This document shows positions 9,218 through 64,000 of a stretch of 64,000 nt of DNA, in pieces; position 1 is the stretch's first letter, and each line of letters starts with the position of its first letter. Origin of the DNA: Amphiscolops sp. MND2022 (lineage: Eukaryota); NCBI GenBank assembly GCA_964187785.1, contig OZ076409.1, positions 30,630,001-30,694,000 of the forward strand. Reading direction: 5' to 3'. The position numbers and the translations under genes are program-made. The notes beneath the pieces were generated by a model. That model searched no databases and was not told the DNA's origin. It was given only the letters and a program-made list of their open reading frames with translations.

Positions 9218-9435
9218 TGTAGTGTCAACTAAGCGTCAGTCAATTTTGTAGTACAACTGATTTGCTCCGCTTGGAAGATTCGTTCACACGGTTCGTGTTA
9301 ACTCCATGAATTGTTCAGCTGGCAGACTGAACAACTCTCCTTATATAGTAGATAACTTTTGATATTAGTAATTCCTTGTTTTACGCCACATCTTCTTTGA
9401 TTTTATGCTGATTGCTATTTTTAGATTGTTTGAGA

Positions 9436-13194: not shown

Positions 13195-13548
13195 AGACAT
13201 GATGATTTTGAACTTTTGCTGATGAATTGATTGACTCCTTGTATATGGACTGTTTATTTATTTGTTGCTTGTATTAGCGGTTCCGCAAGTCGGTTCCTTT
13301 GTAGTGAATCAAAATACACAGAATGATATGCTCTGGTATTATAGGGCAAAGAAAAAAATCAAAAAAAACAGAGAGGAGAAGTTGAGGCAGCTCAGTGCTT
13401 TCCTGGGCTAATTAATTCAGTATTTAGCCTCCGAATTGTTTTCATCCAAGTCGTAGAGTATAGTAGTTTGAGTGAAAGCCATTGTGAAATGAAGAGATTT
13501 TGAGATTCAGTTTGTAGGGATGCTGTCTAGGCCAGTGCCTGGGGCTAA

Positions 13549-16500: not shown

Positions 16501-19329
16501 AATGTCATCTACGTACTGAGCGCATTTGTCCGCCTTTATGGCTTTGTCGAGATATTCCCTCATGAAACTGGAGAAGGACGAGAGTGAGCGGCTCAGGCCC
16601 TGGGCTAACCTGAGGTACGCAAATGTCCTGCTGGCAAAGTTGAAGGCTAGGAGTTGCACTGATTTCTGGTCTGCCATTTGCAGCACGTGGTAAGCTTGTG
16701 AACAATCAAGCTTACAGAACAACTTTTTGCCAGCGAGGTGTTGCGCTGCGTCGGTCAATGTGCTCACGGGATGATTGTTGTTAATGTAATCATCGGAGAT
16801 TAGGTTGTTGATCTTCCTGAGGTCGACCAGGAGACGCAGGCGGCCATTTGGTTTCCGTTGGGCGAAGATGGGACTAGCATACTTGCTGAACGGGAGGGTG
16901 GTGATGATCCCGAAGTAATGCATTAGTGCCAACTCGACTGTCAGGTCCTCTTTCAGGTTAATGGGGCACGGCAAGCTCTGTGAATAGACGGGGTCGTCTG
17001 TTTTTGGGGTGAGCTTGATTTTAAAGTCGTGGTTGATTCCGATGTCTAGTCGGTGCCTCGCGAAAATGTCATTGAACTCTATCAGGATTTCCTCAATGTC
17101 TTTTTGGTCATTTTCTGTTAACTGGGAATCATCCCATTTAAAGTTTTTGAGGAATGCCTCTCGGTCTTCAGTATTGTTATTGGGGTCCAGTTTCTGGATC
17201 TCTTCCAGTTCCTTGATTTCCCTCAGTATTCTGCTTTGAATCGGCGTGTGGGTACTAGGGTCGCCAGGATTGTCCGGTGTAGGGAACCAAAAGTTTTGGT
17301 TGTTTGATGGTTTTTCTGAGGTTTTCAGAAGCTCATTGATGTACACTAGCGCATCTTCGGAGTCGTCTTCGGTCAGCACTTTAAGTGCTGCTGTGTTCAG
17401 TGGTTTGAGTTCTTTGGCCTCTTCCGGGGACAGGATTTTGAACTCGGCGATTGTGGTGTTGCGCTTAATAGTGAAAGGTGTAGGGGTGGTGTTGGTGACT
17501 CTGATGTCGATTTTCCTGTTGGAAGCTGTTGAGATGGAGCTGGCTACTACTAGGGGGTCACCACTACAATGGTTGGTAGCTGGGTTTATGACACCGGTTG
17601 TGTCAACGTTTGATGGTGTGTCTGTGGAGCCCGTGATTGTTTGTGTCGTTTCCGGGGGAATCGTGAGTGGATTCTTGATCTGTACTTTATACAATTTCCT
17701 GTTACGTGTATATTCATCAGTTTCGATTGAATATGTGAGGTGGGGGAAGTGTAACAGGCCTTGGCTCACGTCCAGAATTGCGCTATTGTTTTTAAGGAAT
17801 GTAAGGCCAAGTATCGGGCCAGTCAGGCGTTTGGCCACGATAAAGGTTTCTTTGAAATTCCAGTCTCCGATCTCGAATTGGAGGATGATTGTTTTGGTAG
17901 GTGTCTCAATGTCGCCATTTGCGACTTGAAGTTTGAAGGGGGGAGGTTCCAATTCTTTGACTACATCTTTGGGGGACATTTGAATGATTTTGTTGTAATC
18001 TGTTTCAGAGATGCAGTTTACGAGAGCGCCAGAATCGATGAGGGCGTCCAGGGTCAAGTCCTGGAAATCCATGGGTGCGAAGAGCATTTTCTTCTTCTTT
18101 TTAAGTGATACCGCTGAGAAGATTGGTATGCACTCTTCTTTGGTGATGGGGTCTCTCGTGAGGAATTCCGCAATCTGGGCCAGGGGGTAGGACTGGGGTT
18201 CGTCCTGGGATGGTGAGTCGTTTACTACACCTGGGGGGAATCCAGATTGCGTGTTAGTTGCGGCAGAGGTGAGGGGTCGAGGGTCCTCGACTTCGTTTTC
18301 GGTCTGCCTGCTTGAGAGAGAGGGGTAGACGTTGGTTTCTCTGGTTGGGCTTTCGTTATTCCTCGGATATTCTGCAGTCTGCTGGGGGAGGTAGGACCTG
18401 GGAGTGTCCTGTTGTGGTGCGCCGTTTGCGGCACCTGAGGGCGATCCAGACTGCATGTTGGTTGCGTCAGCTATGATGTGTCGATCAAAGTCGATGTCAT
18501 CTTCTAGCTGGCTATTGAGGATGGGATGTGAGACCTGGGTCTCGCTGAGAATTGGTGGCTCCAAGAGTAGAGATCTCTTGATGCGTTTTGTTGTGGGTTT
18601 GGAGGTGATTGTCTCCGGATTGTGTGTATTTTGGGCTAGGTCCACGGCTTCGCTCGTGGTCCTGTGGGCGATGTCTTTGTGTTGGTGGCTATCTGGTGCC
18701 ACGTCCATTGTTGGGGATCGGATGATACCGGCTCTAATAGGGTTTGTTGACTGTTCCCTTGATGGAGAATGGGGAGCAGTGGCATGTGATCCTTGGTTTT
18801 TGAGTATGGGTCTGAGATTGTCTTGGGGGAGATCAACTATGATCTCTGTCACATGTTCCACGTCCTGGTCGTAATTGGGGATGGGTTGGACGGTTTTGGA
18901 CCTGTGGCGTGGCTCGGTGGAAATGTTCATCCCTGTTTTTCTGATATACTCTTCAAATGGCGTGCATTCCTGGTGTTTGAAGGTTAGTGTTGTTTTGTCG
19001 TATAGTTGAGGGTTATAGTAGGGGTCGCAGCTGAAGTCCGAGTCGTGGAAGTATGTTTCAGGGGTAGTGCTTTCTGGTAGGGGTCGTTTGGGGGTATTGT
19101 ACTCAGTCGGGTTGTCGAGGTACCACTGGGGGTAGTCCTTCTTTGTGATGTTTCGACGGTTGTATTTATGGAGCTTATGGATCTGCCATCTTCGCTGCCA
19201 GTCGAGAGATGGTTCTTCATTTCGCTCAGTGTTTCCTTCTTGGTCGTATGAATTTGGGGGTTCAGATGTTGTGTACTGTCGCGTTTCGACAGTCTCCCCA
19301 AATCGAAGATGTGGCGATTCTAGTTTTTT
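13549..19329 (-). CDS. pol: Pol polyprotein (protease, RT, RNase H, integrase), intact; frame is open upstream of ATG 18930 to the slippery site
   Basis: LIDSGA, YVDD, TDAS/KEFLAI/TDNKS/ADFLSR, H-H-C-C finger (HPG...CPEC), DDE core, WTGPY. Confidence 0.97.
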   Translation of the reverse strand, partial: KKLESPHLRFGETVETRQYTTSEPPNSYDQEGNTERNEEPSLDWQRRWQIHKLHKYNRRNITKKDYPQWYLDNPTEYNTPKRPLPESTTPETYFHDSDFSCDPYYNPQLYDKTTLTFKHQECTPFEEYIRKTGMNISTEPRHRSKTVQPIPNYDQDVEHVTEIIVDLPQDNLRPILKNQGSHATAPHSPSREQSTNPIRAGIIRSPTMDVAPDSHQHKDIAHRTTSEAVDLAQNTHNPETITSKPTTKRIKRSLLLEPPILSETQVSHPILNSQLEDDIDFDRHIIADATNMQSGSPSGAANGAPQQDTPRSYLPQQTAEYPRNNESPTRETNVYPSLSSRQTENEVEDPRPLTSAATNTQSGFPPGVVNDSPSQDEPQSYPLAQIAEFLTRDPITKEECIPIFSAVSLKKKKKMLFAPMDFQDLTLDALIDSGALVNCISETDYNKIIQMSPKDVVKELEPPPFKLQVANGDIETPTKTIILQFEIGDWNFKETFIVAKRLTGPILGLTFLKNNSAILDVSQGLLHFPHLTYSIETDEYTRNRKLYKVQIKNPLTIPPETTQTITGSTDTPSNVDTTGVINPATNHCSGDPLVVASSISTASNRKIDIRVTNTTPTPFTIKRNTTIAEFKILSPEEAKELKPLNTAALKVLTEDDSEDALVYINELLKTSEKPSNNQNFWFPTPDNPGDPSTHTPIQSRILREIKELEEIQKLDPNNNTEDREAFLKNFKWDDSQLTENDQKDIEEILIEFNDIFARHRLDIGINHDFKIKLTPKTDDPVYSQSLPCPINLKEDLTVELALMHYFGIITTLPFSKYASPIFAQRKPNGRLRLLVDLRKINNLISDDYINNNHPVSTLTDAAQHLAGKKLFCKLDCSQAYHVLQMADQKSVQLLAFNFASRTFAYLRLAQGLSRSLSSFSSFMREYLDKAIKADKCAQYVDDIGIATNTPEDLKNNLREVFQCIRAAGLRLTMAKCQFGAKEVEFLGRTISPAGVAPQSHKIQKHLQTIKFPRTKKGLQRYIGFVNYYRNYIPRLSEKIAPFHELIKSDKPVKIDQDLISNFEAINKSLDNACGLWLKQPLPNRQYVLMTDASFKNAGYALMTEEDPEQKITSTKKTYAPVAFGSKTFSPSQLKMSIYAKEFLAIYFAFMEYSHILWGSSKPSIVLTDNKSVTRFFQTKMIPPSLWNACDFVLQFHFKIAHVPGRMNTAADFLSRLDISPKEKVLLQIREDIQTTPIQVNIQSSDIHEEDQFYFLPEDDSETKEDIWERKQQARKQIYSPYKKSTDPMNETDQTISQPENLPLVCNNIQDPEQEQRRLLHNDTSFPRSLRPHQDQDPVLRNLKLKILKEPYDTQLLNDDPRAAKYLTQDDRIIIKDGLLYRQYFGDTGKVKYLQVLLPQQLVDEFIQHHHGKFGKHPGIAKTIQQCREKYYFPGLAARIATHITQCPECAQTKRTPNANITPPLIDMSKVALGPEDALQMDIVPFDDPSGGYTAVITAMDVFSRYLFAYSVARVDTKTVTRVLTDIITRHCYLPTTIITDKGSQFISEAMQQTTAVLGIQLKHATTKHAQTIGILERTHASLKESLKIMTGERRTMWHQFLPMAVLNYNTSYHTSLGCEPSRVFHGRVPYNVLDLKYGIKPQASSTINHEIAEGVLKQTQEILNQSQQALMQAYVRHKRYYDRKASAHPLVVNDYCYALHPKAHSQATKLPFREYLWTGPYIVVKTLPNNNYLIRKLQTNFTQILHRIRLRPFASSQKLPDITVPPKDYQQDTEVTIQHDDLFAMAWEELYNECPPQPENKQSPEPEIILPTPVTDNAPTHPEPPSPNLAYEPEPTPTYPSDQAQDPTVDLDDIPEENTDTPKSPRKSQYNLRRNPTSNWKPDYAYYNALTANSTSPAQSTGSLDDDPEFQVLADLGPDGSPRSEN
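19323..19329 (-). promoter_or_regulatory. Predicted -1 ribosomal frameshift heptamer A AAA AAC
   Basis: TCA AAA AAC TAG ends gag; the -1 frame reads without a stop into the pol ORF; hairpin ACTGTCG/CGACAGT downstream. Confidence 0.85.
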
Positions 19330-20435
19330 GAGTGGCTGAGGTTCTGACTTAAGTTTTGGGGTTGAGTGGTCTGCGGGAGCATGGGTGGGTAGCCCGTTTG
19401 GCTATGTGTTTGGTTGTCGTATGTTTGTTGGTGGGTTGATGGGTTGTCCGAGGGGTATTGACCTTGGGCATTTTGTGGCAACGGGATGTTATTCGGGGGA
19501 GTTGTCTTAGGTGTCTTCCACCATTGAGGTCTGTTTGCCCAGTTGGCTCCGGAATAACACTCTTGGGTCGTATGGCTTTTCTTGCCACAGGTTTCACATG
19601 GATTTGTGATTTTGGTTGGTACCCGGTTGCCTCGGTTGCGGGCTTCCCGAGCTGTTTTCCGGCAGTTCTTTATTACATGGCCTGAGTGGCCACATCCAAA
19701 GCACGGGCCTGCCGGTTTGGGTGGATTGGTGGTTTGTTGTGGGATGTCTTGTACATCGATTTGATGTACACCTGTTATGGTGGTGTCGCTTGGGGCCAGG
19801 AGTCCGTTTAACTCCATTTCACGTTCCAGGTGTTGGACCATGAGGTCGTACGACTCTGTCTCTAGTCTTGCCTGGTTGAGGACTCGTTTTAAATGGGCTG
19901 GCATTTTTGCATAGAATGAGGTTTCTATGAACTTTGGGGCGTCGTCGCCATATGCCTCCTGTGCCAATTTTTGATACTCCAAGAAATCTTGGAAGGTTTG
20001 GCGAGTAGGGTCAAAGTAAAGTTGTTCCCACTTACATCTTGCTGTAGCTATCGATTGTGGGCGTACATACCGTCTGCGAAAAGTGGCGATGATGTCATCT
20101 AGGCTGGCGCGGTTTGCGTCTGTCATGTTGCGATACGTTTGGAGCGCATCGCCTCTCAGGAGGGAGTGGAAGTAGTGGATTTGCTCCTCTTCTGAGATGT
20201 TTGGGTAGACTTTGAGGCTCGTCATAAACAGATCTTCGAAATGCTCGAACTTGTCATTGCGGCCATCGAACGTTGGCATGGTCGTTGAGAGTGCCTTTGG
20301 TAGTCTGGGCAATCCCGCATTCTGTTGTGTGGCATTTTTTAAGGATTCGAGTAGTTTGTCTACGATATCGTCTGGATATCTCATGTTGGGCGGCGGTAGA
20401 CTTGATGACCGGGCGGGTATATCCTGGGTTGTGGT

Positions 20436-20449
20436 AACTCATGTCACCA
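20436..20449 (-). promoter_or_regulatory. Primer-binding site of element B (possibly tRNA-Leu-like)
   Basis: TGGTGACATGAGTT directly after the LTR end; copy at 22665-22678 reads TGGTGACAGGAGTT. Confidence 0.75.
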
Positions 20450-22338
20450 TGTGTTGACCGTGATTTAGACGTAAATCATTCGGTTCAACTGCTCCGGGTC
20501 TAAAACACGTATTCTCTAAGTCTTCATCATCGGGATCGTGGTGTGCGTTGTAGGACGGTTTTTCTGCTAGAGTGTCTATCTTGGAGGCTAGGTTCTCTAT
20601 CATTTTCAAAATCTCGCGCTGTCCAACTTCCGTGTCCTTAATTCTTTTGCTGACGGACTTTTCTATCTTTTCGGATAACTCATTGAAGTCCTTGTCAGAC
20701 AAGCAAGGGGTATTCTCAGTCCTCGTGCTGGAGGACTCAGGTTCGTCTATTGAATTCACTGGGGAATGTCGCCTAGCTTTCCTTTTCGAGCTCCTTTCGG
20801 GCATCTTGTTCAAGTTTAAGTTCTCAATTTTTTTTAGAAGAAGTTTAAGTAGAATCTTAAGCAAAGAAATTTGAAGTTTTGAAACTTTCAATTATTTTCA
20901 ACAAAAGACAATTGCTTGCGATGAACGACAAAATTTGACTAAAAATGGCCTCTTGGTCCCATCATATTTATACCTTCCGATAGAGGAAGCAAGGAAAAGA
21001 CACGCACATACTTCACACTTCGTTCAGCCCGGCGTCCATCCGAGGCAGGGAAACCGGAAATTCAGTTCCGCTTAGTCGAACTCAGGCTTTCAGTTTGTTC
21101 ATGCTTCCCGGGGAAAGCAAGCGTCCACTTCCGGCCTGAGTTGCGACTTCGCTTTCCTTCCTCTCCAATCTCCCGCCTCTTCGAGACGCCGAACTGAACA
21201 ACTAGCAAAACACACGCTGTGACTCATCAAATGAAGTTAACAAACTGCACTAAATTTGGGAAGAAACGATGACAGTCAAATTCCTTTTACAGATATTCTC
21301 TAATTAAAATAAATTAGCAACGAAATGAGAGAAATTACATGGAAAACGTATGATAATTTGCAAAAGGGAGAGTAGAATCTTTTCTACGGTGTATTTGGTG
21401 ATGTTTTAAATAAAACGGCAAAGCCTGGTCCCAGGCCATGGTCCTGGACGGACAAATTGGTTCAACAAAATACAGTGATTATAAACAGTGCACAGCATCA
21501 GAGACATTATTTTATGGAATAATAAATGCAATTAAACGGTAACGTGTTTAGAAAATGGTATATGCATGCAATTAACCCTTGGTTTGCATTTTGACATTGA
21601 GCCTTTGGCTCAGGCCACGGTTCAGGCTTATTTACTGATTAGACGCCATTTACATGTAAAAGTACATTGTATGTAATATTCCAATCAACAATATTATTTA
21701 GGATCATCAGTGATAGCTATTAGAGTTATTTCGAAACAAAGTTACATATTAGCATCGACACTTTCTAATTTTACGGACAGTTCGCTGTATTTTCATTCTC
21801 AGGCCGCGTCTCAGGCCGCGGTCTAAAATATTGCAATGAATTGGCGCGGGAATCTCAATTATTGGTATATATACAAAACTGCACTGTCGATGAAGCACTG
21901 CATTAGCCATTAGTTTGTATACATGTATTCACTGTAAGGGAATGCTTGTGTATTGGTTTACAAATCTCAGGCCGCCTGCCAGGCCACCGCTTTAGTGAGC
22001 GCATTTGAGGCCGGCCACCAGGCCGCAGTTCCGTTCAAGAATTGATTGACTGCTTGTCAGGTTGAGTGTTTTACGTAGTATTGATATTAGCACTATATTA
22101 TTAACATTATTAACTGCACTTTAGCTCCGTTATTCGTAAGTACGTTTTTAAATAAGTGTACATTAATATAGTAATATTAATATATATTTATTTATTTAAT
22201 TGTTTCAAATTTAGCGCCTCTGTTTCTAATTGTCCCTTTGTTGTTTCTTTCTTGTTCTTTTCTCTCTTTTCCCAATTTATTCTTTGAAGACTGGGTTACA
22301 CACGTTGCAGTACTCACAGCTTATGCGGGGCTGTGACA
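20450..22338 (-). repeat. 5' LTR of element B
   Basis: Near-identical to 6853-8742, bordered by the PBS and the GGAAG TSD. Confidence 0.96.
20965..20972 (-). promoter_or_regulatory. TATA box in the LTR
   Basis: TATAAATA ~160 bp upstream of Gag ATG 20804; present in all three LTR copies. Confidence 0.6.
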
Positions 22339-22479
22339 GGAAGTAATTTTAACCTTTCAGAAATTTGATTTTGGAGTATTCAGCAAGGAAAAGCGTTGCC
22401 GAGATTTGCATTAACTGAGGAATTTTCCGCTCTTTTCCGATATTGGTTTTGTTACGAAAAGGATTGTGTCTAGAATTGA

Positions 22480-24707
22480 TTGTCATTGCGGCCATCGAAC
22501 GTTGGCATGGTCGTTGAGAGTGCCTTTGGTAGTCTGGGCAATCCCGCATTCTGTTGTGTGGCATTTTTTAAGGATTCGAGTAGTTTGTCTACGATATCGT
22601 CAGGATATCTCATGTTGGGCGGCGGTAGACTTGATGACCGGGCGGGTATATCCTGGGTTGTGGTAACTCCTGTCACCATGTGTTGACCGTGATTTAGACG
22701 TAAATCATTCGGTTCAACTGCTCCGGGTCTAAAACACGTATTCTCTAAGTCTTCATCATCGGGATCGTGGTGTGCGTTGTAGGACGGTTTTTCTGCTAGA
22801 GTGTCTATCTTGAGGCTAGGTTCTCTATCATTTTCAAAATCTCGCGCTGTCCAACTTCCGTGTCCTTAATTCTTTTGCTGACGGACTTTTCTATCTTTTC
22901 GGATAACTCATTGAAGTCCTTGTCAGGCAAGCAAGGGGTATTCTCAGTCCTCGTGCTGGAGGACTCAGGTTCGTCTATTGAATTCACTGGGGAATCTCGC
23001 CTAGCTTTCCTTTTCGAGCTCCTTTCGGGCATCTTGTTCAAGTTTAAGTTCTCAATTTTCTTTAGAAGAAGTTTAAGTAGAATCTTAAGCAAAGAAATTT
23101 GAAGTTTTGAAACTTTCAATTATTTTCAACAAAAGACAATTGCTTGCGATAAACGACAAAATTTGACTAAAAATGGCCTCTTGGTCCCATCATATTTATA
23201 CCTTCCGATAGAGGAAGCAAGGAAAAGACACGCACATACTTCACACTTCGTTCAGCCCGGCGTCCATCCGAGGCAGGGAAACCGGAAATTCAGTTCCGCT
23301 TAGTCGAACTCAGGCTTTCAGTTTGTTCATGCTTCCCGGGGAAAGCAAGCGTCCACTTCCGGCCTGAGTTGCGACTTCGCTTTCCTTCCTCTCCAATCTC
23401 CCGCCTCTTCGAGACGCCGAACTGAACAACTAGCAAAACACACGCTGTGACTCATCAAATGAAGTTAACAAACTGCACTAAATTTGGGAAGAAACGATGA
23501 CAGTCAAATTCCTTTTACAGATATTCTCTAATTAAAATAAATTAGCAACGAAATGAAAGAAATTAAATGGAAAACGTATGATAAACTGCAAAAGGGAGAG
23601 TAGAATCTTTTCTACGGTGTATTTGGTGATGTTTTAAATAAAACGGCAAAGCCTGGTCCTCCCAGGCCATGGTCCTGGACGGACAAATTGGTTCAACAAA
23701 ATACAGTGATTATAAACAGTGCACAGCATCAGAGACATTATTTTATGGAATAATAAATGCAATTAAACGGTAACGTGTTTAGAAAATGGTATATGCATGC
23801 AATTAACCCTTGGTTTGCATTTTGACATTGAGCCTTTGGCTCAGGCCACGGTTCAGGCTTATTTACTGATTAGACGCCATTTACATGTAAAAGTACATTG
23901 TATGTAATATTCCAATCAACAATATTATTTAGGATCATCAGTGATAGCTATTAGAGTTATTTCGAAACAAAGTTACATATTAGCATCGACACTTTCTAAT
24001 TTTACGGACAGTTCGCTGTATTTTCATTCTCAGGCCGCGTCTCAGGCCGCGGTCTAAAATATTGCAATGAATTGGCGCGGGAATCTCAATTATTGGTATA
24101 TATACAAAACTGCACTGTCGATGAAGCACTGCATTAGCCATTAGTTTGTATACATGTATTCACTGTAAGGGAATGCTTGTGTATTGGTTTACAAATCTCA
24201 GGCCGCCTGCCAGGCCACCGCTTTAGTGAGCGCATTTGAGGCCGGCCGCCAGGCCGCAGTTCCGTTCAAGAATTGATTGACTGCTTGTCAGGTTGAGTGT
24301 TTTACGTAGTATTGATATTAGCACTATATTATTAACATTATTAACTGCACTTTAGCTCCGTTATTCGTAAGTACGTATTTAAATAAGTGTACATTAATAT
24401 AGTAATATTAATATAAATTTATTTATTTAATTGTTTCAAATTGAGCGCCTCTGTTTCTAATTGTCCCTTTGTTGTTTCTTTCTTGTTCTTTTCTCTCTTT
24501 TCCCAATTTATTCTTTGAAGACTGGGTTACACACGTTGCAGTACTCACAGCTTATGCGGGGCTGTGACAGGAAGTAATTTTAACCTTTCAGAAATTTGAT
24601 TTTGGAGTATTCAGCAAGGAAAAGCGTTGCCGAGATTTGCATTAACTGAGGAATTTTCCGCTCTTTTCCGATATTGGTTTTGTTACGAAAAGGATTGTGT
24701 CTAGAAT
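22480..24707. repeat. Tandem duplication of 20251-22476 (gag 5' end, PBS, LTR copy at 22679-24569, TSD and ~135 bp flank)
   Basis: Direct repeat with scattered substitutions and indels; 3-nt filler TGA at 22477-22479. Confidence 0.95.
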
Positions 24708-53119: not shown

Positions 53120-55147
53120 ATGGCATACCATCACACGGCCTCTGCAGCTGCTATGCCTGTCCAACCCCCACCCAATGAAAACGCTGCGCGAACTCAGCGA
53201 GTTAATCAGGTGCAATTTATTGAGGAGAGACTGCGCAACGGCATTTCGCCGGCAGCTGTGGCTGGGATCACTGCTCTCCTAGCACAGTGGGAGACACAGC
53301 CTACTCTACTCAGTGTAGCTGTAACTATAGTAGCAGATGTGGCAGGTACAAACGTACCATGACCTGTCGAAATGGAGTATGGGATGGCTATCACATAACC
53401 CACCCTTTCCTTGATGACATATCCACTGCAGTGAGAGGTCCCAGTGTACAAACGACTGTCGAACAAGAGGCTACCCTGCGTATTCCACTTGCAAATGTGC
53501 CCATGCCACAACTTTTGAACCCGGCACGTCTGGTTATTCAGCCTCAACCACAAATACACCCGCAATCGGGAACTCAGCCGATGTATTTGCCCTATGCGCC
53601 CTATGCCAGTGCTCCCGCTGCCCATGCGCCGCATATGGTTCTCAGCGCCACTCCACGATTACAATCAGAAGCAGGCACTTCCAGTCCAAGGTCCAGTGCC
53701 AGAGTGCAATCAGTGCAGTCTTCCGCACCACCTTCCATGCGATCAGGCGTAACTGCACCTGACATGTCGCGCTGGACTCCCAGTGAACAAGCTGCAATCC
53801 AAGCATTGCAGGCAGTGGCAAATTACCCCGAGTCCAGGGATTTCGTAGAGACGGTCGCGAGACAAATGCCAGGATTGCAGAATCTTTTAGAAAGCAGGGG
53901 ACAACAAGAAGGTTGTCTGACCACGAGAGAAGGTCAAGGTCCAATCACCGACCCACTCACTCCTTGTACCAGCGCGAACAGAAATCGAGCGCCCTCGCCA
54001 ATACCTGGATTGTCGCCCGTATCTGATGAAGAACTTGGCCGTAAAAGGGCATCGCCACATTAGCTGGCTCAATCGGTTGGCAACAATGACAACCCAACGA
54101 GCCGTCCTTCGCCAGACAAGCGAAGCAATGTACTTCGATCTGTGGTGATACAAGAACCACCAAAAGTAGGCTACCATGGCATCTCCGAACCCCAGATGAC
54201 GATGAAAGAAGTGATGAAACGATATGCTCCAAGCCCTGCAACTGTGCCAGAGAGCACCGACAATTCAGTGCACCCGAGCTCCTCGACAGCAAAGTCTGGG
54301 AAGAAATTCACGGGCCCACCGTATTTCTCACAATCGGATAATGTATCAGTGTAAGTGGTAACGGGAGATGCTAATCGCATTTAGAAGTCGCCCCCAAGTT
54401 AAACGACCGACAATACCGTGACCGCCAACGAGTACCGCCGACTAACACCCACCAGGCACATTTGCGAAAGCTGTCAGTAATCGTCCATGTGACACGAACT
54501 TTGCGCCCCTTCGACGCAGATACAGGCGAAGCAGCGTGGGAACAACGAGTATTCAGACGACTCACGACGACTCATGACAATTATCTTTGTCCTATGCAAA
54601 ACAACTTACATGAACAATGCAACGCCAGATATTCACTGCGACCAGGTGAAACCTGGGAAACCCACAGCCAATACTCTAGAAACCTGAAAGCAATGAAACC
54701 ATTTTCGAAAGAAGCAATTCAACGCACACGTTACTGCGTGATGATTGATTCAACGGTCCCATGCGACCTTCCTCTCGACAACATTATTCCTGGCGTATTG
54801 GTCGTGACTATGCCTCTATCGCGACTGCTCGAAATGGCAGAGGTGGCTATAGCCTTATTCTCTCCCGAAGGTCCCCAGAGCGAACTTCCACCCAGTCGCA
54901 TTATTTTTGCCAATTTGATGGACCACATGGCCTGTGAAGGTCTTTTGGAAAATCTACCTCATTTGCTGCGCGAGATGTCAAACAACGAAACACTCAGAAA
55001 GGAAGTAATCAAGTTGTTACATCGAGTGGCAACTGCAATGGAGCGTACGGCAGAGTTGCTCCGCACACACCTAGAAGTGCCGGCGATGTTCGTTTCTCCC
55101 CCTGGAATCTTGTATTGGGGAGGAATGTTCCAGCAGTTCGTCTACAT
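53120..55147 (+). pseudogene. Additional sense ORF of element C, disrupted; C-terminal SGNH-hydrolase-like region cut by element D
   Basis: ATG at 53120; fragments 53287-54063 and 54462-55147; VMIDS, VVTMP, IIFANLMDH, MFVSPPG pattern. Confidence 0.5.
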
Positions 55148-55458
55148 TGATATACCAGATATATGTTGTGTAGTGCTGTATCGTCCCCCCAACTCCCCTT
55201 ATGTCTAGACTTCTAGACTTCATAATAAATGTACTCCGTCTCATCAATGTATCTGATTAATATTCTAGATGTAAACTTAATGTACCCACTTAATATTCTG
55301 TACAATGCACTTTGATTTAGACACAACTAAAATTCATTCTTCACCAACCAGTTGTCTTCCCTTAAGACCTAATATCTGCAGCTCTGTTAGTGTCTCTTAA
55401 AGTACTAAGATCATTTGGACACTCTATCTCAGTAACACCGATCTATAAGAACAAAACA
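55148..55458 (+). repeat. Probable 5' LTR of element D (3' boundary uncertain)
   Basis: Begins with TG where the element C ORF breaks; AATAAA near 55224; PBS-like TGGTGCGACC at 55470. Confidence 0.55.
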
Positions 55459-55547
55459 AGTACTTTAACTGGTGCGACCATTTCGTTTCTTTCCTTTTCT
55501 ACAATCACTTTTGTAATCTAACTTTTTCTTTTAATCCCAAATTCTTC

Positions 55548-55803
55548 TGTACTAATCACCTAATGTGATTCGACCTCGTAGTCGGTACAAATTCAATACT
55601 TCTTCTGTACTAATCACACATTGTGGTTCGACCAAGTAGTCGGTACATTAAAGCTTTCTGTACTAATCACCTTTTGTGATTCAGCTACGTGCTGGTACAC
55701 TCTCTTCTTCTGTACTAATCACTTTTTGTGATTCAGCTACGTGCTGGTACACTCTCTTCTTCTGTACTAATCACCTTTTTGTGATTCAGCTCCTGCTGGT
55801 ACA
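55548..55803 (+). repeat. Five tandem structured repeats (predicted three-way junctions) in the 5' leader of D
   Basis: TGTAC-T-AATCAC-loop-GTGATT-C(GA/AG)C-loop-G(TC/CT)G-GTACA at 55548, 55606, 55659, 55711, 55763. Confidence 0.9.
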
Positions 55804-55933
55804 ACCGTTTCCTTTTCTAACCTTTTTCATACTTCCCCTCTTTCATATCCTTACCCTTTCACTTTTGTTCCACTCCTTTTCAACCCCACATTGCTTCACC
55901 TCACTTTCTTTTCACCATTTTCCATACTATTTC

Positions 55934-56080
55934 ATGCCTTCTTTGAACGACTCCGTTTGTATTTGTCTCATCCTCCTCTACATTTTTGGTCTTTGTGCAA
56001 TTGTTTTGCTTCTTGTTGATAAATTTATTCTGCCTTTTATTCCTCACGCTTTTGAACAATACAGAACTTCCTCACTTTAA
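55934..56080 (+). CDS. Upstream micro-ORF 1 (48 aa, one hydrophobic helix)
   Basis: MPSLNDSVCICLILLYIFGLCAIVLLLVDKFILPF... Confidence 0.45.
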   Translation: MPSLNDSVCICLILLYIFGLCAIVLLLVDKFILPFIPHAFEQYRTSSL

Positions 56081-56089
56081 TAATTCTAT

Positions 56090-56203
56090 ATGTTTCTAAC
56101 CGAAAATCTTGCCACTATTATTCTTTTCGTCTCCTATATCTTTGCCATGATGGTCTTTCTAATGCTTCTTATTGAAAAAATCGTCCAATCTCTTTTCAAC
56201 TAA
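56090..56203 (+). CDS. Upstream micro-ORF 2 (37 aa, one hydrophobic helix), similar to micro-ORF 1
   Basis: MFLTENLATIILFVSYIFAMMVFLMLLIEKIVQSLFN. Confidence 0.45.
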   Translation: MFLTENLATIILFVSYIFAMMVFLMLLIEKIVQSLFN

Positions 56204-56318
56204 CTTTCCTTTATTCCCAATTTCCCTTTCCTTTTCCCCCTCACCATCTTCATTTTTTCACTTCTTTTCTTATCTCCTTTCCCATTCTTTAATCCTATTC
56301 TTCTTTTCCTCCCTTTGT

Positions 56319-56555
56319 ATGCACCTCCTCTTTCTTCACCCCAATCCTCTCCTTGCTCTTTTTCAACTTCTTTTTCTTTCTCTTTTCCTCATAACTACTT
56401 CGATATATTTTTATCCATCCTTCCTCTTCTTTTACACTTATCTTCCCCTCAAAATCAGCCGGTACTTTCACCCTCTTCCTACTGAACCATCTATTCACCC
56501 TGATGTAATTATGGATTGGATTTGGCTCCATTTCCATCCTCGTAAACACTCCTAA
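56319..56555 (+). CDS. Upstream micro-ORF 3 (78 aa, hydrophobic); its stop overlaps the gag ATG
   Basis: TAATG at 56553-56557. Confidence 0.4.
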   Translation: MHLLFLHPNPLLALFQLLFLSLFLITTSIYFYPSFLFFYTYLPLKISRYFHPLPTEPSIHPDVIMDWIWLHFHPRKHS

Positions 56556-59500
56556 TGACTGATTCAAATCTCCTTCTCCCCCTTCCTTTCGCCCCAAACC
56601 CCTCTCATCGTATTACTCGTGATATTTCACACACTCTTCTTCAATTCTTAAACAATCTTATCTATAATTCAACCACTCCTCTTTCTTTTGAAACCTACCC
56701 GGAAGATATTTACACTACTCCACTAATTCGTGAACATCATGATTCTTATTTATATTATATTGACACCAAATCACTTCTTCCTACTTCGGATGAACCTCCA
56801 TTTTCTATTCCGTTCACTTCTCCCTCCACTCACTGTGATACTTTTCAAAAGAATATCCATCCCAATAATATTAAAATTCCAATTGCCCATGTATTTACAA
56901 CTTTTTTAAACAATCTCCAAGAAAAAAATAACCTTCTACCTCATCATGTTTTTAACCCTTCCTCTATTCAAGCACTTCTTCAAAAGGAATCTCTTTTTGA
57001 CCTTCCCAATATTGAACAATTTCGCACTATTGAAAATAATCCTCACCATTGGCTTCTCACAGATATATTCCAAATTCATCACTTTCAATATCAATTTTTT
57101 CAAAATCTTACCCTCAATAAAGATACCAAAGAACAAATTCAAATATATTCCCTTTTTCTCCGAAAATTCTTTAGACATAATTACCAACTAGTTTGGCATT
57201 CAAAATTTCAAACCGCTTGTAAAAACTTCCCACAACAATTCACCACTGATGAACTTCTACCTTTCCTTGACACTCCTGATCACCAACATCCCCATTATTA
57301 TAATCTTCTTGACTTTCCTCCTTCTCATTTTGAATATCTTGTCTATGATACTAATAGTATTGATAAAAGCCTCAATCTTTCTCCTCCTATTCGCCCTTAT
57401 TTTCAACCATCCAATATTCCTCCTTCGAATGAAACTATTTCTACAGCCTCTATTCAAACTCTCCCTTCCTCATCAAATAATATCACAAATCCTACTTCAT
57501 CTTCAACTCAACGTAATTTTCCTCCTATTCCTCAAGATACAACTTTGAATCACAATAATCCCCCTTCTACTTCTCAAATCACAACGATTCATAATCCTCC
57601 TCTATCTAATTCACCCAATCAATATACAACCCCTTCTAACACCCCACCTGCTGTTATTGCTAATCCCATTCAACATTCAACATTCCAAATTCCTTCATTA
57701 AACCCAATTCCACTTTCTTTAAATACCACTATGCCTGTTCAAAATTTTCCCCAAAATCCTCCATCTTTCTCTAATCAAAGCCATTCTAATCTTCAAACAA
57801 CTTCTTCTACAACCCAATCTACATCATATAACCCTTATATTTCTCTTTATCCTACCTTTCAAAATTTCCCCACTAATTCCTTTCAACCCCCTCCAAATCC
57901 ACCTAATTCACTCCCCCCTACTTCCACACTATCATTCAACCCTCCTTCTTCTTATCCTTCCTTTCCGTTTCCAAATACTCCTTCTGTTCCTTTTGCTGCC
58001 CTTTCCGATCCTATTAAACTTTTTGATGGCTTAGATCATACCTATCCTCCAGAAAAATTCTTAGCCCACCTCAGCGCTCGTGTTACATTTCAACTTGGAC
58101 CTCAACCTGTAGATTTGCAATCATATTTAACTTGGCATTCTCGCCGAATGTCTCTTCTGTATTGTTCCCTCACAGGAACTGCTTCCAATTGGTATGACCG
58201 TCTCCCACAAGTCTATAAAGATGATTGGTCTTCCTTCCTTCAAATTTTTAAGAAACAATTCTATTCTCAAAAACACGCATATCATGCTCAAATTGAAGCC
58301 CTTTCTCTTCTTAAAAAGGATAATGAAAATGTTCGTCATTTCGCTCTTAAAGTTGAAACCCTTGTAAAACAAGGCTGGTACAATGAATATCCTTCAACGA
58401 TTAACCTTAAATGTAATGAAATTTTTACCCGTGGCCTACCAAAAAAATTAAAAGACTTCGCTAATAAACGTCAAGTTAAACATATTTCAAGCTCATTAGA
58501 ACCTTCAATCCCATTTCATTCTCTAGTTAATATGGTTGATTCCGAAGATATAACTCTTGAAAAAATTAAAACTCAAGAACTTTCTCTTGAAATTAACAAT
58601 TTGTCTAATACCTTCCAACAAAATACAACAATTCAAGATTCTCCTCCAGAACCACCACAAGTTCAAGCTATGGATCCAAATAATAAATCAAAACCCCAAT
58701 TCAAGAAATATTGTTCATTTTGTCATAAAAATAATCACTCTGTTTCAACTTGTTTCCGCCGTCTCAATATGCTTAAAGAATCAAAACCACAATCTAGATC
58801 TCCAACCCCCACGTTTTATCAACATTTTAAAAATCCTTCCAATAAACCTCACTATTCTCGTCACCGTAGTCGAAGTTATAGTAATCCTCCTCGCAAATCT
58901 TCTCGCGACACTCGATATCAATCTCGTTCTCATTCACGTTCACATTCACGTCCCAGGTATAATACTAAACCCTACTCCCGACCATATTCACCTTATCACA
59001 ATCGTGATAGATCTCGATATGATAAACATTATTACCCTACTCAAAATAAATCATATTCTTCTACACGCTCATATTATAACTCTAATTCCTCTCGCAGTCC
59101 ATCTAAATATTACCCTCGCTCTCGCGAACGTTCCTCCAATTTTAACACCTCTACCTTCAATAGATATAATTCTCCTTATCGTCCTCCTTCTAAACCACGT
59201 AATGATCGCTATCGTAGTAGATCTCATTCAAATTCACACAACTATTCTCAAACTCAGTACAAGCCCTCTATAAATCTCACACATCCTTCTACACCACCTC
59301 CTCAAACAAATTCTCATACAGAATCCTTTTTTGAAATCAACATGTATCACCCTACTATCTCCTCCCCCCAATCTTCTTCTACTTCCTCTGAACAAGCAAA
59401 TGCTATTACACCTTCCACTTGGTTCGTTAATCTATATGTTTTCAAACCAAATGAAGATACCTCCATTCCTTCTAAACTAGAACTCTTATTTCTTCTTGAC

Positions 59501-62500
59501 AGTGGTGCATCCATCTGTGTTTTAAATTTACCTACTTTTACCTTTTTAGCTAAACACTTCTTAAAATGTTCAACACATCCTCCACAACAAAACGAATACA
59601 AAACGTTAACTGTTGCTAATAAATCCGAAGTACCCATACTTCATAATCTAATACTTACACTCCATACTTCTCTTAATGGAAATACTCGTACCCTTGTTAT
59701 TCCTTTTGCAGTCGCAAATATTAAATATAACATACTTGGAACTCCCTTCTTTGAACAATATGTAAAAACTCTTGATATTGAAAACATGTTCCTCACATTT
59801 AACACTCCACACGAATCTCGTATTAACACTCTCCCTTTTACAGCCCATAAGGAAAAGGATTACCCATATTTTTCATATATATACACAATTAATGTCAAAA
59901 ACAAAATTTATTTTAAACCCAATGCATCGCAAGTTATTCATTTTCCTATTCAACCAACACTTCCGCTAACATTTAAAACCTCCGACAATGAAGTTATATT
60001 CCCTTCTACACCTCATCCATTTTTTAATACACGCTTCAATTCAACTTTCAATTTCCTCCAAGTCTATCAAAATGTTAAAACCGAACCTTCAACATGTTCT
60101 GTCATCATTCAAAATATTACACATCACTCTGCTACCCTTGCTCCTGGATATATTGGATATATTGAAGTTCCTGCTACAAATATTCAACCCTCTCGTTATA
60201 AAGTAAATGATGTAAATTCCTTAATACATTCCATATTTCATTCTTACTATCCTGATATTTCTGAACCGAAACCTCCCCGTCGACGTTCTTCTCTCCGCAA
60301 TCCTCAAATTGAAATAAATAATTTGCAACCTTCCCAAATCTTAACAAGACCCCTTCCACCTTTGCCATATTCACCAGATACCCAACAATTTCTTAATAAA
60401 TTCAAATTTCAATATTCAGATGTTTCTGATGAAGAATATTTACAATTGTGTTCCATTCTTGTTAAATACCGCACATGCTATGCAACACATAAAAATGATG
60501 TTGGTCAAATAGCTACCCCTTTTCGAATTCGCCTTAAACCCAATGCTAAACTTCAAACCCAACGCCCTACCAAAGTTCCCATTCACTATAGGGAAAAATT
60601 AAAAAAACTCCTTGATGAATTAGAAAAACACAATATTATTCGCCAAATTGGTTCCAACCCCTCTGATAAATCCATTTATGGTACCACGTTTTTAAATCCT
60701 CTCATCATTATCCCCAAAGGAGATACTATTAAAGTTGTTTTAGACGCACGTCATCTTAACTCTAATACTGATCAATCTTTTGAATCTTGGCCTATTGAAC
60801 CTTTAGCTCCTCAGCTTGCTCGCGCTAACAAAAAATTTAAATCTGCTATTGACCTTATGTATGCTTATGCTCACGCTCCATTAGATGAAGAAACTATCAC
60901 TTTAACCAGTTTTTCCTCTGGTGACAAACTTTATGCTTTTATTCGTGGATTTTATGGTCTTAAAGGCCTACCTAATTTTTTTACCAAACAAATGTATTCC
61001 TTTTTCCAAAAACTTATTGACCAAGGCTTTGCACTAGTTTATATTGATGACATCCTTCTTCTTGCCCATACCAAACCTCATATGTTAAATTTAATAGAAC
61101 AACTCCATCAAATTTGTCAAACAAATAATCTTAAAATTGCTCCTGAAAAATCTTTCTATATTCTTCTCACTGTTAAATTTCTTGGCCATGAAATTGGCAA
61201 TAATACCATTAAACCCATTTCTTCCAAAGTTGATGCTATTCATCAATTAAAAACACCTAATTCCAAAACTGAACTAATGCGCTTCATCGGATCAATGAAT
61301 TTTTATTCTAAATTCATTAACAAATTGCATATTTCTTTAAAACCTTTCTACACTCTTCTCCATGATGACATTTCATTTGAATGGACTCCTGAGTTAGACA
61401 AACTCTTCAATCAAATTAAACTTTCTCTTTCCAAAGATGCAGAACTTGCTATTCCCAATACTACCCATCCCTTTTACATAACAGTAGACGCCTCTTTAAT
61501 AGGTTTAGGCGCAGTCCTATTTCAACCAAATTCCAATAACAAAATGCAAATTCTTTCATATAATTCTCGTATTTTAACAACCCAAGAACAAAAACTCTCT
61601 ACTTATGATAGAGAACTTTGTGCCATTACTTTTGCTCTTTCCCAATATGAATTTATTATCATTGGCTCCAAATTCCCTATAACTGTTTTTACAGATCATA
61701 ACCCTATTCTTTTCCTCTTCACACGCAAAGGTAACCTTACTCCTAGACAGTATAAAGCTCAAATGTTATTAACCAAATTTTCAAACTTGCAAATTATTCA
61801 CACCGCTGGTACAAATCTTACTGTCGCTGACATGCTTAGTAGAGATTTCTCAACTATTAATGCTAAAACTTGCCAACTCCACCATAAAACTCTTCCTCCT
61901 CATATTGATTTTCTACAACTTAAACAAAACAATATTTTGAAACCTGTTCATTATCTTGTAAAACATGAAGATGTCCTTCCTACACAAAAAAATGATTCTC
62001 ACTTAATATTAGCCGATTATGGTGATGATCAATTTACACTTCGTATTCAAGATAAAGGCAATGTTGTTAAATATACTCCTCTTGACTCCTTTTCATTTCA
62101 ATCTGTTTCCTCATTCTTAAACAAATACAAAAAACCAGTCAAAAACAAAGTTAAAACTCTCCTTCAACAAAACCCTCTTTTAAACGAAACTGATTTATAT
62201 GACACAGACGATCCTGTTCTTAAACGAATTCCTCAGCAATCTTCACAAACATCTCATGAACTTCACACTCTTTTTACAGAAGTACAACATCACAATTTCA
62301 ACGATATTACCTTGTCACACGATATTTTAACCAACTTTATAAACTCCCCTCCTATTATTAACCATACTTTACACAGTAACGCTATAACACCAACTTCCCC
62401 AAAAACCATCAATACTCAATCTTTGCCATTTTTTGACCCTTCCTTCTTTGCCCACCGTAAGGCATTTGATAATTTTTTCCTTCCTTCTGACACCTTATTA

Positions 62501-64000
62501 ACATTACCCATTTTACTTCAAGCTCAAAAGGATGATCCTGTTCTTTCTACAGTATATACATGGTTAAAACAAAAACAGAAACCTCACTCCTTGACCCCAA
62601 TTATTAAAGCAAATTCCTTTTTATATACATATTATAAACAATTCCAACACCTATATATAGACCCAACCTCTCACCTCATTCAATATTATACTCCCAATTC
62701 TCGAATTTTTGAAGAAATTTTTATTAAAACCCAACCCTCTATTAACCAGACACGTATATGTTTACCATTTAAACTTTTCTACGCCGCATTCAGTAAAACA
62801 CATTCTCATGGCCACTCCGGTGAAAAACTTTCTATTAAAACTTTTAACCAATTCTATTTTATTCCCCATCTACCTTTATGGTTTTCAATCTTTATCCATG
62901 ACTGTATTGACTGCCAGACAAATAAGCATTTTCCAATTAAACCACAAAATATTTCTCCTCCCCTTCCTTTTTATGAAAACGCTACTCACTTCAATTACCG
63001 GATTTCTATGGACACCAAAGGTCCTATTTCCCCATCTTCTCAAAACAACTCCTATATTTTTGTTATTATTGATGCATTTAGTCACTTCGTTGTTACTAAC
63101 CCAGCTCCTAACATTAATTCAAAATACGCAATTCAAACTCTTCTCCATCACTGGATCACAAAATTTGGCCCCCCTCAATATCTTGTCACAGATCGAGGTA
63201 CCGAATATATCAATCAAGACATGGCTCATTTTTGTTCTCTCTTTCACATTAACCATTCACCTCGAACTCCCTATTCACCATGGACCAATGGTTTGGTCGA
63301 AGTCCAAAATAGAAATCTTGGAACTCACCTCCGAATATTTTTACAAAATCCTCCTACTAACTGGTCATTTCAAACCCAAATGTATGCATATGCTCATAAT
63401 ACAACACCTCTCTCTCAACTTAAACTTTCTCCATATCAAATCGTTTTTCACACCCATCCTCGCATACCTCTTACCTTTTCCCTTAATTTACCTCGAGAGG
63501 CTCAAAAACAATGTATTGCAACTTATTGTGAATCTCTTCCTCCTCATTCACATTATAGTACCCAAAACCTTAACCCATTTTTTCATTCCCTTCTTGACAA
63601 ACCCATCTCATCGTGGCTTTTAGCAGCTGAAACCGCAATGTTAGAAATATATTCAACTGTTCATCGTCATATAAATCACAAACTCAATTCTCAAAGTTCT
63701 ACATTTGAAACTACCCATTTGAAACAACTACCTCTTAATACCTTCGTTATACATACAAACTTTAAACCAGTTACGTTTTCAAACAAACTTAAACCTCTTC
63801 GAATTGGCCCATATAAAATCCTTAAACATCTTTCTGAAGTAACATATGAGCTTCTTTCACAAGATGGCTCTACATTTCAAACTCATCGAAATCATATTTT
63901 GCCATACTACCCTAAAGAACCCATAATTTTCCCATACATTAAACATTATCATTCCACCCCTTCTCTTATCAACAATCCTGATACTGATCCTTACCAAGAC
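56555..64000 (+). CDS. gag-pol: Single-frame Gag-Pol polyprotein (at least 2482 codons, 3'-partial)
   Basis: One frame carries FDGLDH, CSFCHKNNHSVSTC, an RS-rich tract, LLDSGA, YIDD, VDAS, HSHGH...CIDC, TDRG and GPY; missing from the ORF track, as expected if no stop occurs before the window end. Confidence 0.93.
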   Translation, partial: MTDSNLLLPLPFAPNPSHRITRDISHTLLQFLNNLIYNSTTPLSFETYPEDIYTTPLIREHHDSYLYYIDTKSLLPTSDEPPFSIPFTSPSTHCDTFQKNIHPNNIKIPIAHVFTTFLNNLQEKNNLLPHHVFNPSSIQALLQKESLFDLPNIEQFRTIENNPHHWLLTDIFQIHHFQYQFFQNLTLNKDTKEQIQIYSLFLRKFFRHNYQLVWHSKFQTACKNFPQQFTTDELLPFLDTPDHQHPHYYNLLDFPPSHFEYLVYDTNSIDKSLNLSPPIRPYFQPSNIPPSNETISTASIQTLPSSSNNITNPTSSSTQRNFPPIPQDTTLNHNNPPSTSQITTIHNPPLSNSPNQYTTPSNTPPAVIANPIQHSTFQIPSLNPIPLSLNTTMPVQNFPQNPPSFSNQSHSNLQTTSSTTQSTSYNPYISLYPTFQNFPTNSFQPPPNPPNSLPPTSTLSFNPPSSYPSFPFPNTPSVPFAALSDPIKLFDGLDHTYPPEKFLAHLSARVTFQLGPQPVDLQSYLTWHSRRMSLLYCSLTGTASNWYDRLPQVYKDDWSSFLQIFKKQFYSQKHAYHAQIEALSLLKKDNENVRHFALKVETLVKQGWYNEYPSTINLKCNEIFTRGLPKKLKDFANKRQVKHISSSLEPSIPFHSLVNMVDSEDITLEKIKTQELSLEINNLSNTFQQNTTIQDSPPEPPQVQAMDPNNKSKPQFKKYCSFCHKNNHSVSTCFRRLNMLKESKPQSRSPTPTFYQHFKNPSNKPHYSRHRSRSYSNPPRKSSRDTRYQSRSHSRSHSRPRYNTKPYSRPYSPYHNRDRSRYDKHYYPTQNKSYSSTRSYYNSNSSRSPSKYYPRSRERSSNFNTSTFNRYNSPYRPPSKPRNDRYRSRSHSNSHNYSQTQYKPSINLTHPSTPPPQTNSHTESFFEINMYHPTISSPQSSSTSSEQANAITPSTWFVNLYVFKPNEDTSIPSKLELLFLLDSGASICVLNLPTFTFLAKHFLKCSTHPPQQNEYKTLTVANKSEVPILHNLILTLHTSLNGNTRTLVIPFAVANIKYNILGTPFFEQYVKTLDIENMFLTFNTPHESRINTLPFTAHKEKDYPYFSYIYTINVKNKIYFKPNASQVIHFPIQPTLPLTFKTSDNEVIFPSTPHPFFNTRFNSTFNFLQVYQNVKTEPSTCSVIIQNITHHSATLAPGYIGYIEVPATNIQPSRYKVNDVNSLIHSIFHSYYPDISEPKPPRRRSSLRNPQIEINNLQPSQILTRPLPPLPYSPDTQQFLNKFKFQYSDVSDEEYLQLCSILVKYRTCYATHKNDVGQIATPFRIRLKPNAKLQTQRPTKVPIHYREKLKKLLDELEKHNIIRQIGSNPSDKSIYGTTFLNPLIIIPKGDTIKVVLDARHLNSNTDQSFESWPIEPLAPQLARANKKFKSAIDLMYAYAHAPLDEETITLTSFSSGDKLYAFIRGFYGLKGLPNFFTKQMYSFFQKLIDQGFALVYIDDILLLAHTKPHMLNLIEQLHQICQTNNLKIAPEKSFYILLTVKFLGHEIGNNTIKPISSKVDAIHQLKTPNSKTELMRFIGSMNFYSKFINKLHISLKPFYTLLHDDISFEWTPELDKLFNQIKLSLSKDAELAIPNTTHPFYITVDASLIGLGAVLFQPNSNNKMQILSYNSRILTTQEQKLSTYDRELCAITFALSQYEFIIIGSKFPITVFTDHNPILFLFTRKGNLTPRQYKAQMLLTKFSNLQIIHTAGTNLTVADMLSRDFSTINAKTCQLHHKTLPPHIDFLQLKQNNILKPVHYLVKHEDVLPTQKNDSHLILADYGDDQFTLRIQDKGNVVKYTPLDSFSFQSVSSFLNKYKKPVKNKVKTLLQQNPLLNETDLYDTDDPVLKRIPQQSSQTSHELHTLFTEVQHHNFNDITLSHDILTNFINSPPIINHTLHSNAITPTSPKTINTQSLPFFDPSFFAHRKAFDNFFLPSDTLLTLPILLQAQKDDPVLSTVYTWLKQKQKPHSLTPIIKANSFLYTYYKQFQHLYIDPTSHLIQYYTPNSRIFEEIFIKTQPSINQTRICLPFKLFYAAFSKTHSHGHSGEKLSIKTFNQFYFIPHLPLWFSIFIHDCIDCQTNKHFPIKPQNISPPLPFYENATHFNYRISMDTKGPISPSSQNNSYIFVIIDAFSHFVVTNPAPNINSKYAIQTLLHHWITKFGPPQYLVTDRGTEYINQDMAHFCSLFHINHSPRTPYSPWTNGLVEVQNRNLGTHLRIFLQNPPTNWSFQTQMYAYAHNTTPLSQLKLSPYQIVFHTHPRIPLTFSLNLPREAQKQCIATYCESLPPHSHYSTQNLNPFFHSLLDKPISSWLLAAETAMLEIYSTVHRHINHKLNSQSSTFETTHLKQLPLNTFVIHTNFKPVTFSNKLKPLRIGPYKILKHLSEVTYELLSQDGSTFQTHRNHILPYYPKEPIIFPYIKHYHSTPSLINNPDTDPYQD

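Follow-up and report, generated by a model that had tools for sequence, protein, structure and literature searches.

What is a tandem array of small, foldable modules doing in the leader of a large retrotransposon? The window analysed here (the whole 64-kb stretch of DNA) holds five such modules just behind the primer-binding site (PBS) of an intact, env-carrying Ty3/gypsy element of about 18.9 kb, called family A, in a genome of 1.07 Gb that, judging by its errantivirus-type elements, is probably an animal's. Answers to this question touch on how such elements recognise their own RNA; according to the available sections of PMC4974528, no clear definition of the packaging signals of LTR retrotransposons exists, even in yeast.

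The element that carries the array begins with a 5' LTR at 55148..55467 (+), whose start was placed by the divergence of the flanks among 11 copies and whose sequence is 100% identical to that of the 3' LTR (L189:3739-4058). The end of the 5' LTR was inferred from the 4-bp target duplication of one insertion; judged from this single duplication, the family A LTR (55148-55469; L189:3739-4061) appears to end in TA, unlike the LTRs of families B and D, which have CA ends. The PBS (55470..55480, +) is complementary to the 3' end of genomic tRNA-Leu(UAA) genes, six of which stand in tandem at 270-nt spacing at locus L231. Two short hydrophobic open reading frames follow in the leader, sORF1 of 48 aa (55934..56080, +; no Pfam match) and sORF2 of 37 aa (56090..56203, +). 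The N-terminal 30 aa of sORF1 are near-identical across five subfamily representatives, and similar short ORFs are visible in the leaders of families B, C, D and E. The layout is like that of sORF1 and sORF2 in the MDG1 group as the available part of PMC11952523 describes them, but the family A sORFs are shorter and without the N-terminal Gly myristoylation motif.

The Gag-Pol open frame (2640 aa) starts at 56555 and continues beyond the window (56555..64000, +), encoding in order a 290-aa N-terminal extension, capsid, one CCHC knuckle with an RS-rich tract, RT, RNase H and integrase. The extension (56555-57424) has no Pfam match and is 37-42% identical across families A-D; structure prediction from 4 sequences gave a pLDDT of 44 and no confident model, with Atlas scores all below 0.8. 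Four post-pol ORFs lie beyond the window, encoding 453 aa (L032:790-2148), 938 aa (L032:2248-5016), about 504 aa (L191:5604-7115) and 308 aa (L189:1505-2428). The 938-aa product is a fusion glycoprotein that matches Pfam Monjiviricetes_fusion (E 1.7e-27), and no Pfam family matches the other three ORFs, of which those of 453 and 504 aa have homologues at 34-39% identity in families B, C and D. A direct repeat of ~45 nt (L032:2150-2245) stands directly upstream of the env start codon. A crude pattern search of the family A LTR and leader found no donor-like splice site that would leave the array out of a spliced env RNA. The window also contains a second Ty3/gypsy element on the minus strand (6853-24000). 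Its LTR is present in three near-identical copies, and its 838-aa ORF on the plus strand (10678-13194) has no Pfam match.

The five units of the array lie on the plus strand at 55548..55589, 55606..55647, 55659..55699, 55711..55751 and 55763..55803, that is, 78-333 nt downstream of the PBS start, with the gag start 750 nt further on. The first-pass annotation had described each unit as three stems (P1, P2, P3) with a G-U pair in P2 of unit 2, had placed the array just after the PBS, and had noted a switch of the P3 arms from CGAC/GTCG in units 1-2 to CAGC/GCTG in units 3-5; all of this was found as described, and the switch alters two pairs. Since unit 4 is a recent duplicate of unit 3, five units do not amount to five independent observations; the class of units 3 and 4 is the source of the variation between 4 and 6 units among close copies. 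A sequence-blind search for the 5-bp/1-nt/6-bp/4-bp geometry of the units returned exactly these five matches in the 64-kb window, none on its minus strand and none in each of five block shuffles. Rfam 15 covariance models searched over 55100-56600, including hammerhead, twister, pistol, hatchet and HDV-like families, gave no match to E 10, in agreement with the initial impression that this is not a known RNA family. G accounts for 6 of the 121 unpaired nucleotides of the array and 36 of the 150 paired ones.

How the units fold depends on whether they are taken singly or together. For isolated units, the predicted minimum-energy fold is the three-way junction (-9.6 to -12.3 kcal/mol, ensemble share 0.20-0.35), and the array region has a better fold than any of 200 dinucleotide shuffles (z -5.99). 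For the whole array, ViennaRNA finds a minimum free energy of -70.3 kcal/mol, as against -58.2 kcal/mol for the five-junction fold, by pairing P1 between neighbouring units, and the intra-unit P1 probability is 0.01. The palindrome GTAC stands on both P1 strands of every unit, so that the 3' strand of unit n can pair with the 5' strand of unit n+1. Coaxial stacking is not part of the ViennaRNA energy model, and folding during transcription would work in favour of P1 within a unit. The outer pair of P1 does not decide between the registers: long linkers fit both, and of 17 short linkers, 10 fit unit n, 3 fit unit n+1 and 7 fit a shifted register. The 5' P1 strand of unit 1 and the 3' P1 strand of the last unit are conserved like the other P1 strands, which is compatible with closed units and no proof of them. 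The predicted P2 and P3 hairpins are thus firm, whereas an invariant P1 that can also pair between units leaves the closed three-way junction unproven. This part of the earlier description therefore stands for isolated units and not for the whole-array fold, and P1 adds no covariation to it. In 4 of 5 units the minus strand folds to a mirror structure about equally well, and we infer from context and a modest G-U excess that the plus-strand RNA is the molecule concerned.

Whether base pairing in the array is under selection was addressed with the positionally equivalent units 1, 2 and last in 69 parsed loci out of 71 young ones, each with 3-8 units, a variant being counted as inherited when present in 3 or more copies. 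In the stems and the junction U, one of 93 columns holds an inherited variant, a change from U-G to U-A. Inherited variants occupy 14 of 31 loop columns and 15 of 27 linker columns (together 29/58), 46 of 147 columns in sORF1 and 158 of 203 in the flanks, the last figure being inflated by low-complexity alignment; loops and linkers do drift freely, as had been claimed. Private substitutions per site per copy are similar, 0.0030 in stems and 0.0039 in the rest, and inherited stem variants are rare, so stems mutate normally after insertion and the changes are not passed on. This amounts to purifying selection during replication and not to a mutational cold spot or hairpin repair.

Homologous units add compensatory changes to this conservation. 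In a survey of P3 in 604 units from 160 loci, some of which may overlap, the matched arm pairs CGAC/GTCG and CAGC/GCTG occur in 129 and 113 loci, CAAC/GTTG in 10, CGAT/ATCG in 8 and CAGT/ACTG in 7; 9 loci have the G-U intermediate CGAC/GTTG and 2 its A-C mirror. Through CAAC, the two P3 types of the window are connected by single steps, and the P3 evidence comes to about four compensatory events, not hundreds. In alignment A2, which comprises 69 of 171 distinct units, 96.5% of cells are paired and the covariation score, inflated by relatedness, is 0.211 as against 0.118 in shuffled alignments, none of 500 shuffles scoring as high. The invariant columns of A2 were imposed by anchors and are no evidence; invariance rests on the comparison of young copies. 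Position 3 of P2 takes U-A, U-G and C-G, but 12 loci have a C-A mismatch class that is inherited. In the sample fetched without a unit pattern the counts at this position are U-A 113, C-G 7, C-A 1 and U-G 24; in a biased subset, from which paired units with a match to the fetch patterns were missing, they are 23, 19, 15 and 14, with no association. P1 shows no covariation across A2. Covariation among homologous units is seen as five matched pairs in P3 and not in P1, which never covaries. Taken together, stem conservation, covariation score and matched P3 arms bear out the proposal of selection on base pairing: the array is a real, selected RNA-pairing array.

In the genome as a whole, a half-unit pattern of P1 and P2 has 1223 matches, compared with 4 for the reversed control. 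A model built from the 69 units matched only the five units in the window; in 27 other stretches, among them the rest of the element and sister families, it found nothing except two matches with E >0.5, and in 46 older family A loci it found 190 matches clustered in arrays. Subfamilies whose Gag identity is as low as about 60-70% still have arrays, with 3-8 units per copy and with pyrimidine-rich, G-poor spacers of about 0 to 10 nt between units. These data bear on the extremely improbable reading of the array as a neutral minisatellite, in which template switching or homogenisation between units would maintain the complementarity of the arms. The unit number is indeed unstable, and template switching is able to introduce paired changes in hairpins. 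However, loops stay position-specific and the units are therefore not homogenised, the arrays have persisted over the divergence just given, and the private stem-breaking mutations, which arise at near the usual rate yet are not inherited, largely refute this reading.

Insertions without an array provide a further view of its importance. There are 241 exact family A LTR-PBS junctions; 40 insertions were fetched from the 43 among the first 100 that had not already been seen or Gag-matched. At least one unit is strictly matched in 36 of them, 2 have decayed units, and 2 have no array, having lost it by different deletions. Six family B insertions (L238-L243) are array-less as well, each with a different downstream junction and with the PBS extended by primer-tRNA-like sequence; they are likely to be faulty plus-strand transfers. 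The eight array-less insertions (6 B, 2 A) all have different junctions and none was seen amplified, which, as they are few and mostly miss more than the array, fits a requirement in cis only weakly. Outside this genome, no relatives were found in viral contigs by protein or pattern or in metagenome contigs by protein, and the 7 matches of a protein search are all close to families of the same genome. One metagenome pattern match was rejected, being single, inside an apparently bacterial coding region and at the estimated chance level. All array evidence comes from one genome.

Within that genome, related lineages have different arrays in the same place. Families B and C, with a Gag capsid about 61% identical to that of A and the same PBS, have a different structured array at the same leader position (L097-L108, L159-L178, L031:7720-8010; about 150-460 nt after the PBS). 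Its module is a bulged helix. Across 48 leaders with 237 units, three matched forms of the closing helix predominate (112, 89 and 23 units). The base 5' of the helix matches the bulge base (G-C in 117 and C-G in 115 of the 237 units), a pattern that suggests a 2-bp pseudoknot but reflects one or two events. In 42 of the 48 leaders the last module has the same strands in circularly permuted order. Family D has a third array, made of internal-loop modules with ACCG/CGGT versus ACTG/CAGT (L179-L186, about 250-600 nt after the PBS) and followed by a long irregular hairpin; each D module has on its minus strand what we take to be a GATA-type word. The L3 loops of A resemble the B bulge, by eye only. 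The family A model finds no match in the leaders of B, C, D or E, which leaves the three motifs without demonstrated homology. The array of family A is a new motif family, and two further motif families stand beside it.

The array and the Gag of a locus are of one type in 135 of the 138 family A loci in which Gag is present, in all 47 B/C loci and in all 10 D loci, a match expected from linkage alone; for the three A-array loci L085, L218 and L264, Gag of B or D gives the better score. Despite the different motifs, the four families A-D have similar CCHC knuckles. The env-carrying relative E (RT 45% identical) has short leaders and no N-terminal Gag extension, and no such array was found in its leaders; the array is therefore not a general need.

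The same comparison weighs on the idea that the repeats act as DNA. Clustered transcription-factor half-sites forming an enhancer or insulator would resemble the 5' UTR repeats of gypsy, ZAM and Idefix in position and tandem layout, as these are presented in the part of PMC8872304 available, and P1 with the base of P2 is invariant in sequence, both strands folding alike. Five matched P3 arm pairs are nevertheless unexpected for sites in duplex DNA; spacers that vary from about 0 to 10 nt and the circular permutation of the B module in 42/48 leaders also argue against a DNA element, which makes it very unlikely.

A compact catalytic or nuclease-blocking RNA, either a new self-cleaving ribozyme or an xrRNA-like barrier that stops 5'-3' decay, would account for the small multi-helix fold with its invariant core, and the match of the B 5' dinucleotide to the bulge before the closing strand gives that module a pseudoknot topology that we regard as reminiscent of xrRNA. 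In class 1 xrRNAs, which are built on a three-way junction, 5' nucleotides pair into junction bases and the P3 loop pairs downstream. By comparison, the A junction has one unpaired U, and its L3 loop is free in sequence and length and has no downstream partner. The Rfam search to E 10 speaks against this class of RNA too, which leaves it highly improbable. Self-cleavage in particular was set aside as without support, the junction having a single unpaired U and the loops varying freely, and a cut beside the PBS would destroy the template.

Two further explanations concern the fate of the RNA in the host cell. Translational control, by an IRES-like element or a shunting or scanning gate serving the two sORFs and the gag start, would suit a long, pyrimidine-rich leader in which a conserved sORF begins 130 nt past the last unit and two sORFs precede gag. 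It is quite unlikely, since a freely varying number of 3-8 units and three unrelated sister motifs are ill-suited to conserved ribosome docking. An export, stability or read-through element (CTE/RRE-like) of the 19-kb unspliced RNA, read by an accessory ORF product or by a STAR-family or branch-point protein, is fairly unlikely. It would draw on the same stem conservation and P3 data, and the arrays do occur in the clade that shares the 453-/504-aa accessory ORFs and the Gag extension. In addition, every family A unit contains the word TACTAAY, which we take to be a branch-point or Quaking-type (STAR-protein) word; it is present in all five units of the window and shows no inherited change in units 1, 2 and last of the 69 copies. 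This word, however, is predicted to be paired in both P1 registers, i.e. buried in stems, and is not kept in B or D modules, and known export elements are usually single large structures further 3'. A related reading of the units as 3' splice sites (branch point plus YAG) was rejected, as AG is missing from several unit classes.

We tentatively prefer, at a little below an even chance, the reading of the array as a multivalent, lineage-specific packaging or dimerisation signal read by a protein of the element. The lineage-specific motifs favour an element-encoded reader over a ribosome or host factor, and the position favours Gag and packaging, as in Ty1 (available parts of PMC6844567 and PMC4974528). 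Under this proposal the array would fold into modules within genomic RNA, each presenting the reader, most likely Gag, with a fixed helical junction made up of the invariant P1, the single U and the AA/UU base of P2. Repetition of units would add avidity, and the pyrimidine-rich, G-poor spacers may hold the modules apart. The GTAC cores could allow P1 to exchange partners from unit to unit or from one genome to another, which would join Gag loading to dimerisation, and lineage-specific motifs would let co-resident families package their own RNA. Features of packaging signals that the array displays are its location between PBS and gag, a structure conserved in replicating lineages and self-complementary sequence. 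Retroviral zinc knuckles usually bind exposed G residues; the array loops are G-poor, and exposed G-rich loops for nucleocapsid binding were not found in them. These G-poor loops, the similar knuckles across A-D, the array-less family E, the missing donor-like site, the three A-array loci with better B or D Gag scores, the lack of covariation in P1 and the inherited P2 C-A class all count against packaging.

A bolder form of the packaging reading, possible but on balance doubtful, is a lock-and-key address code in which each co-resident lineage would have its own RNA module, amplified 3-9x after the PBS, and its own protein reader, possibly the 290-aa N-terminal extension of Gag, which is common to A-D and absent from E. 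If true, self and non-self RNA would be discriminated at packaging, and there would be at least three new RNA motif families, one of them a pseudoknotted module that survives circular permutation. The candidate signal is of practical interest as well, being a repeated 42-nt module pre-dissected by evolution, with two different counterparts in the same genome. Three motifs in one host permit a direct cross-binding test of own-versus-neighbour RNA recognition, and orthogonal small RNA-protein pairs would be useful as tags.

How does the array compare with known systems? The env-carrying Ty3/gypsy errantiviruses of metazoans share the gag-pol-env layout of family A (PMC13524379, available part). 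The survey that describes them excluded LTR pairs more than 14 kb apart, as its available text states, and the family A element is 18.9 kb long; its main text, as far as available, has no UTR, tandem or secondary structure terms and does not treat leaders (PMC13524379). The family A PBS word is absent from the 7 supplementary files of that survey. Word searches of open-access papers, which may miss spelling variants of 5' UTR, returned no covarying RNA-module array in a Ty3/gypsy leader. In Drosophila, 19 of 49 LTR-element 5' UTRs are tandemly repeated, and the repeats of gypsy, ZAM, Idefix and Tirant share position and tandem layout with family A; the available part of PMC8872304 describes them as DNA enhancers, silencers or insulators and does not report compensatory pairing. 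Some gypsy-type tandem 5' UTR repeats so far read as DNA enhancers or insulators may deserve re-examination as RNA.

The nearest analogues are structured RNA repeats of other kinds. Coronavirus SL5, as presented in the accessible text of PMC7373990, has repeated motifs in the viral 5' region that are implicated in packaging, but it conserves loop sequence, whereas family A conserves stems and junction and leaves loops free; no homology is claimed. The Xist A-repeat consists of short structured repeats in which, as in family A, pairing within a repeat competes with pairing between repeats, and it differs in having another sequence and in serving as a silencing domain of a lncRNA, without homology (PMC6917512, sections available). 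A further comparison is with the Ty1 5' packaging region with PAL1/PAL2 and with retroviral Psi/DIS. In the available sections on Ty1, packaging and palindromic dimer signals lie between PBS and gag (PMC4974528; PMC6844567), and these systems, like family A, have cis structure near the PBS and self-complementary sequences able to pair within or between genomes. Ty1 and Psi/DIS are single composite domains, whereas the candidate signal of family A is an array of near-identical modules in variable number, with G-poor loops, and is replaced wholesale in sister lineages. The array most probably represents a familiar type of signal in a new architecture.
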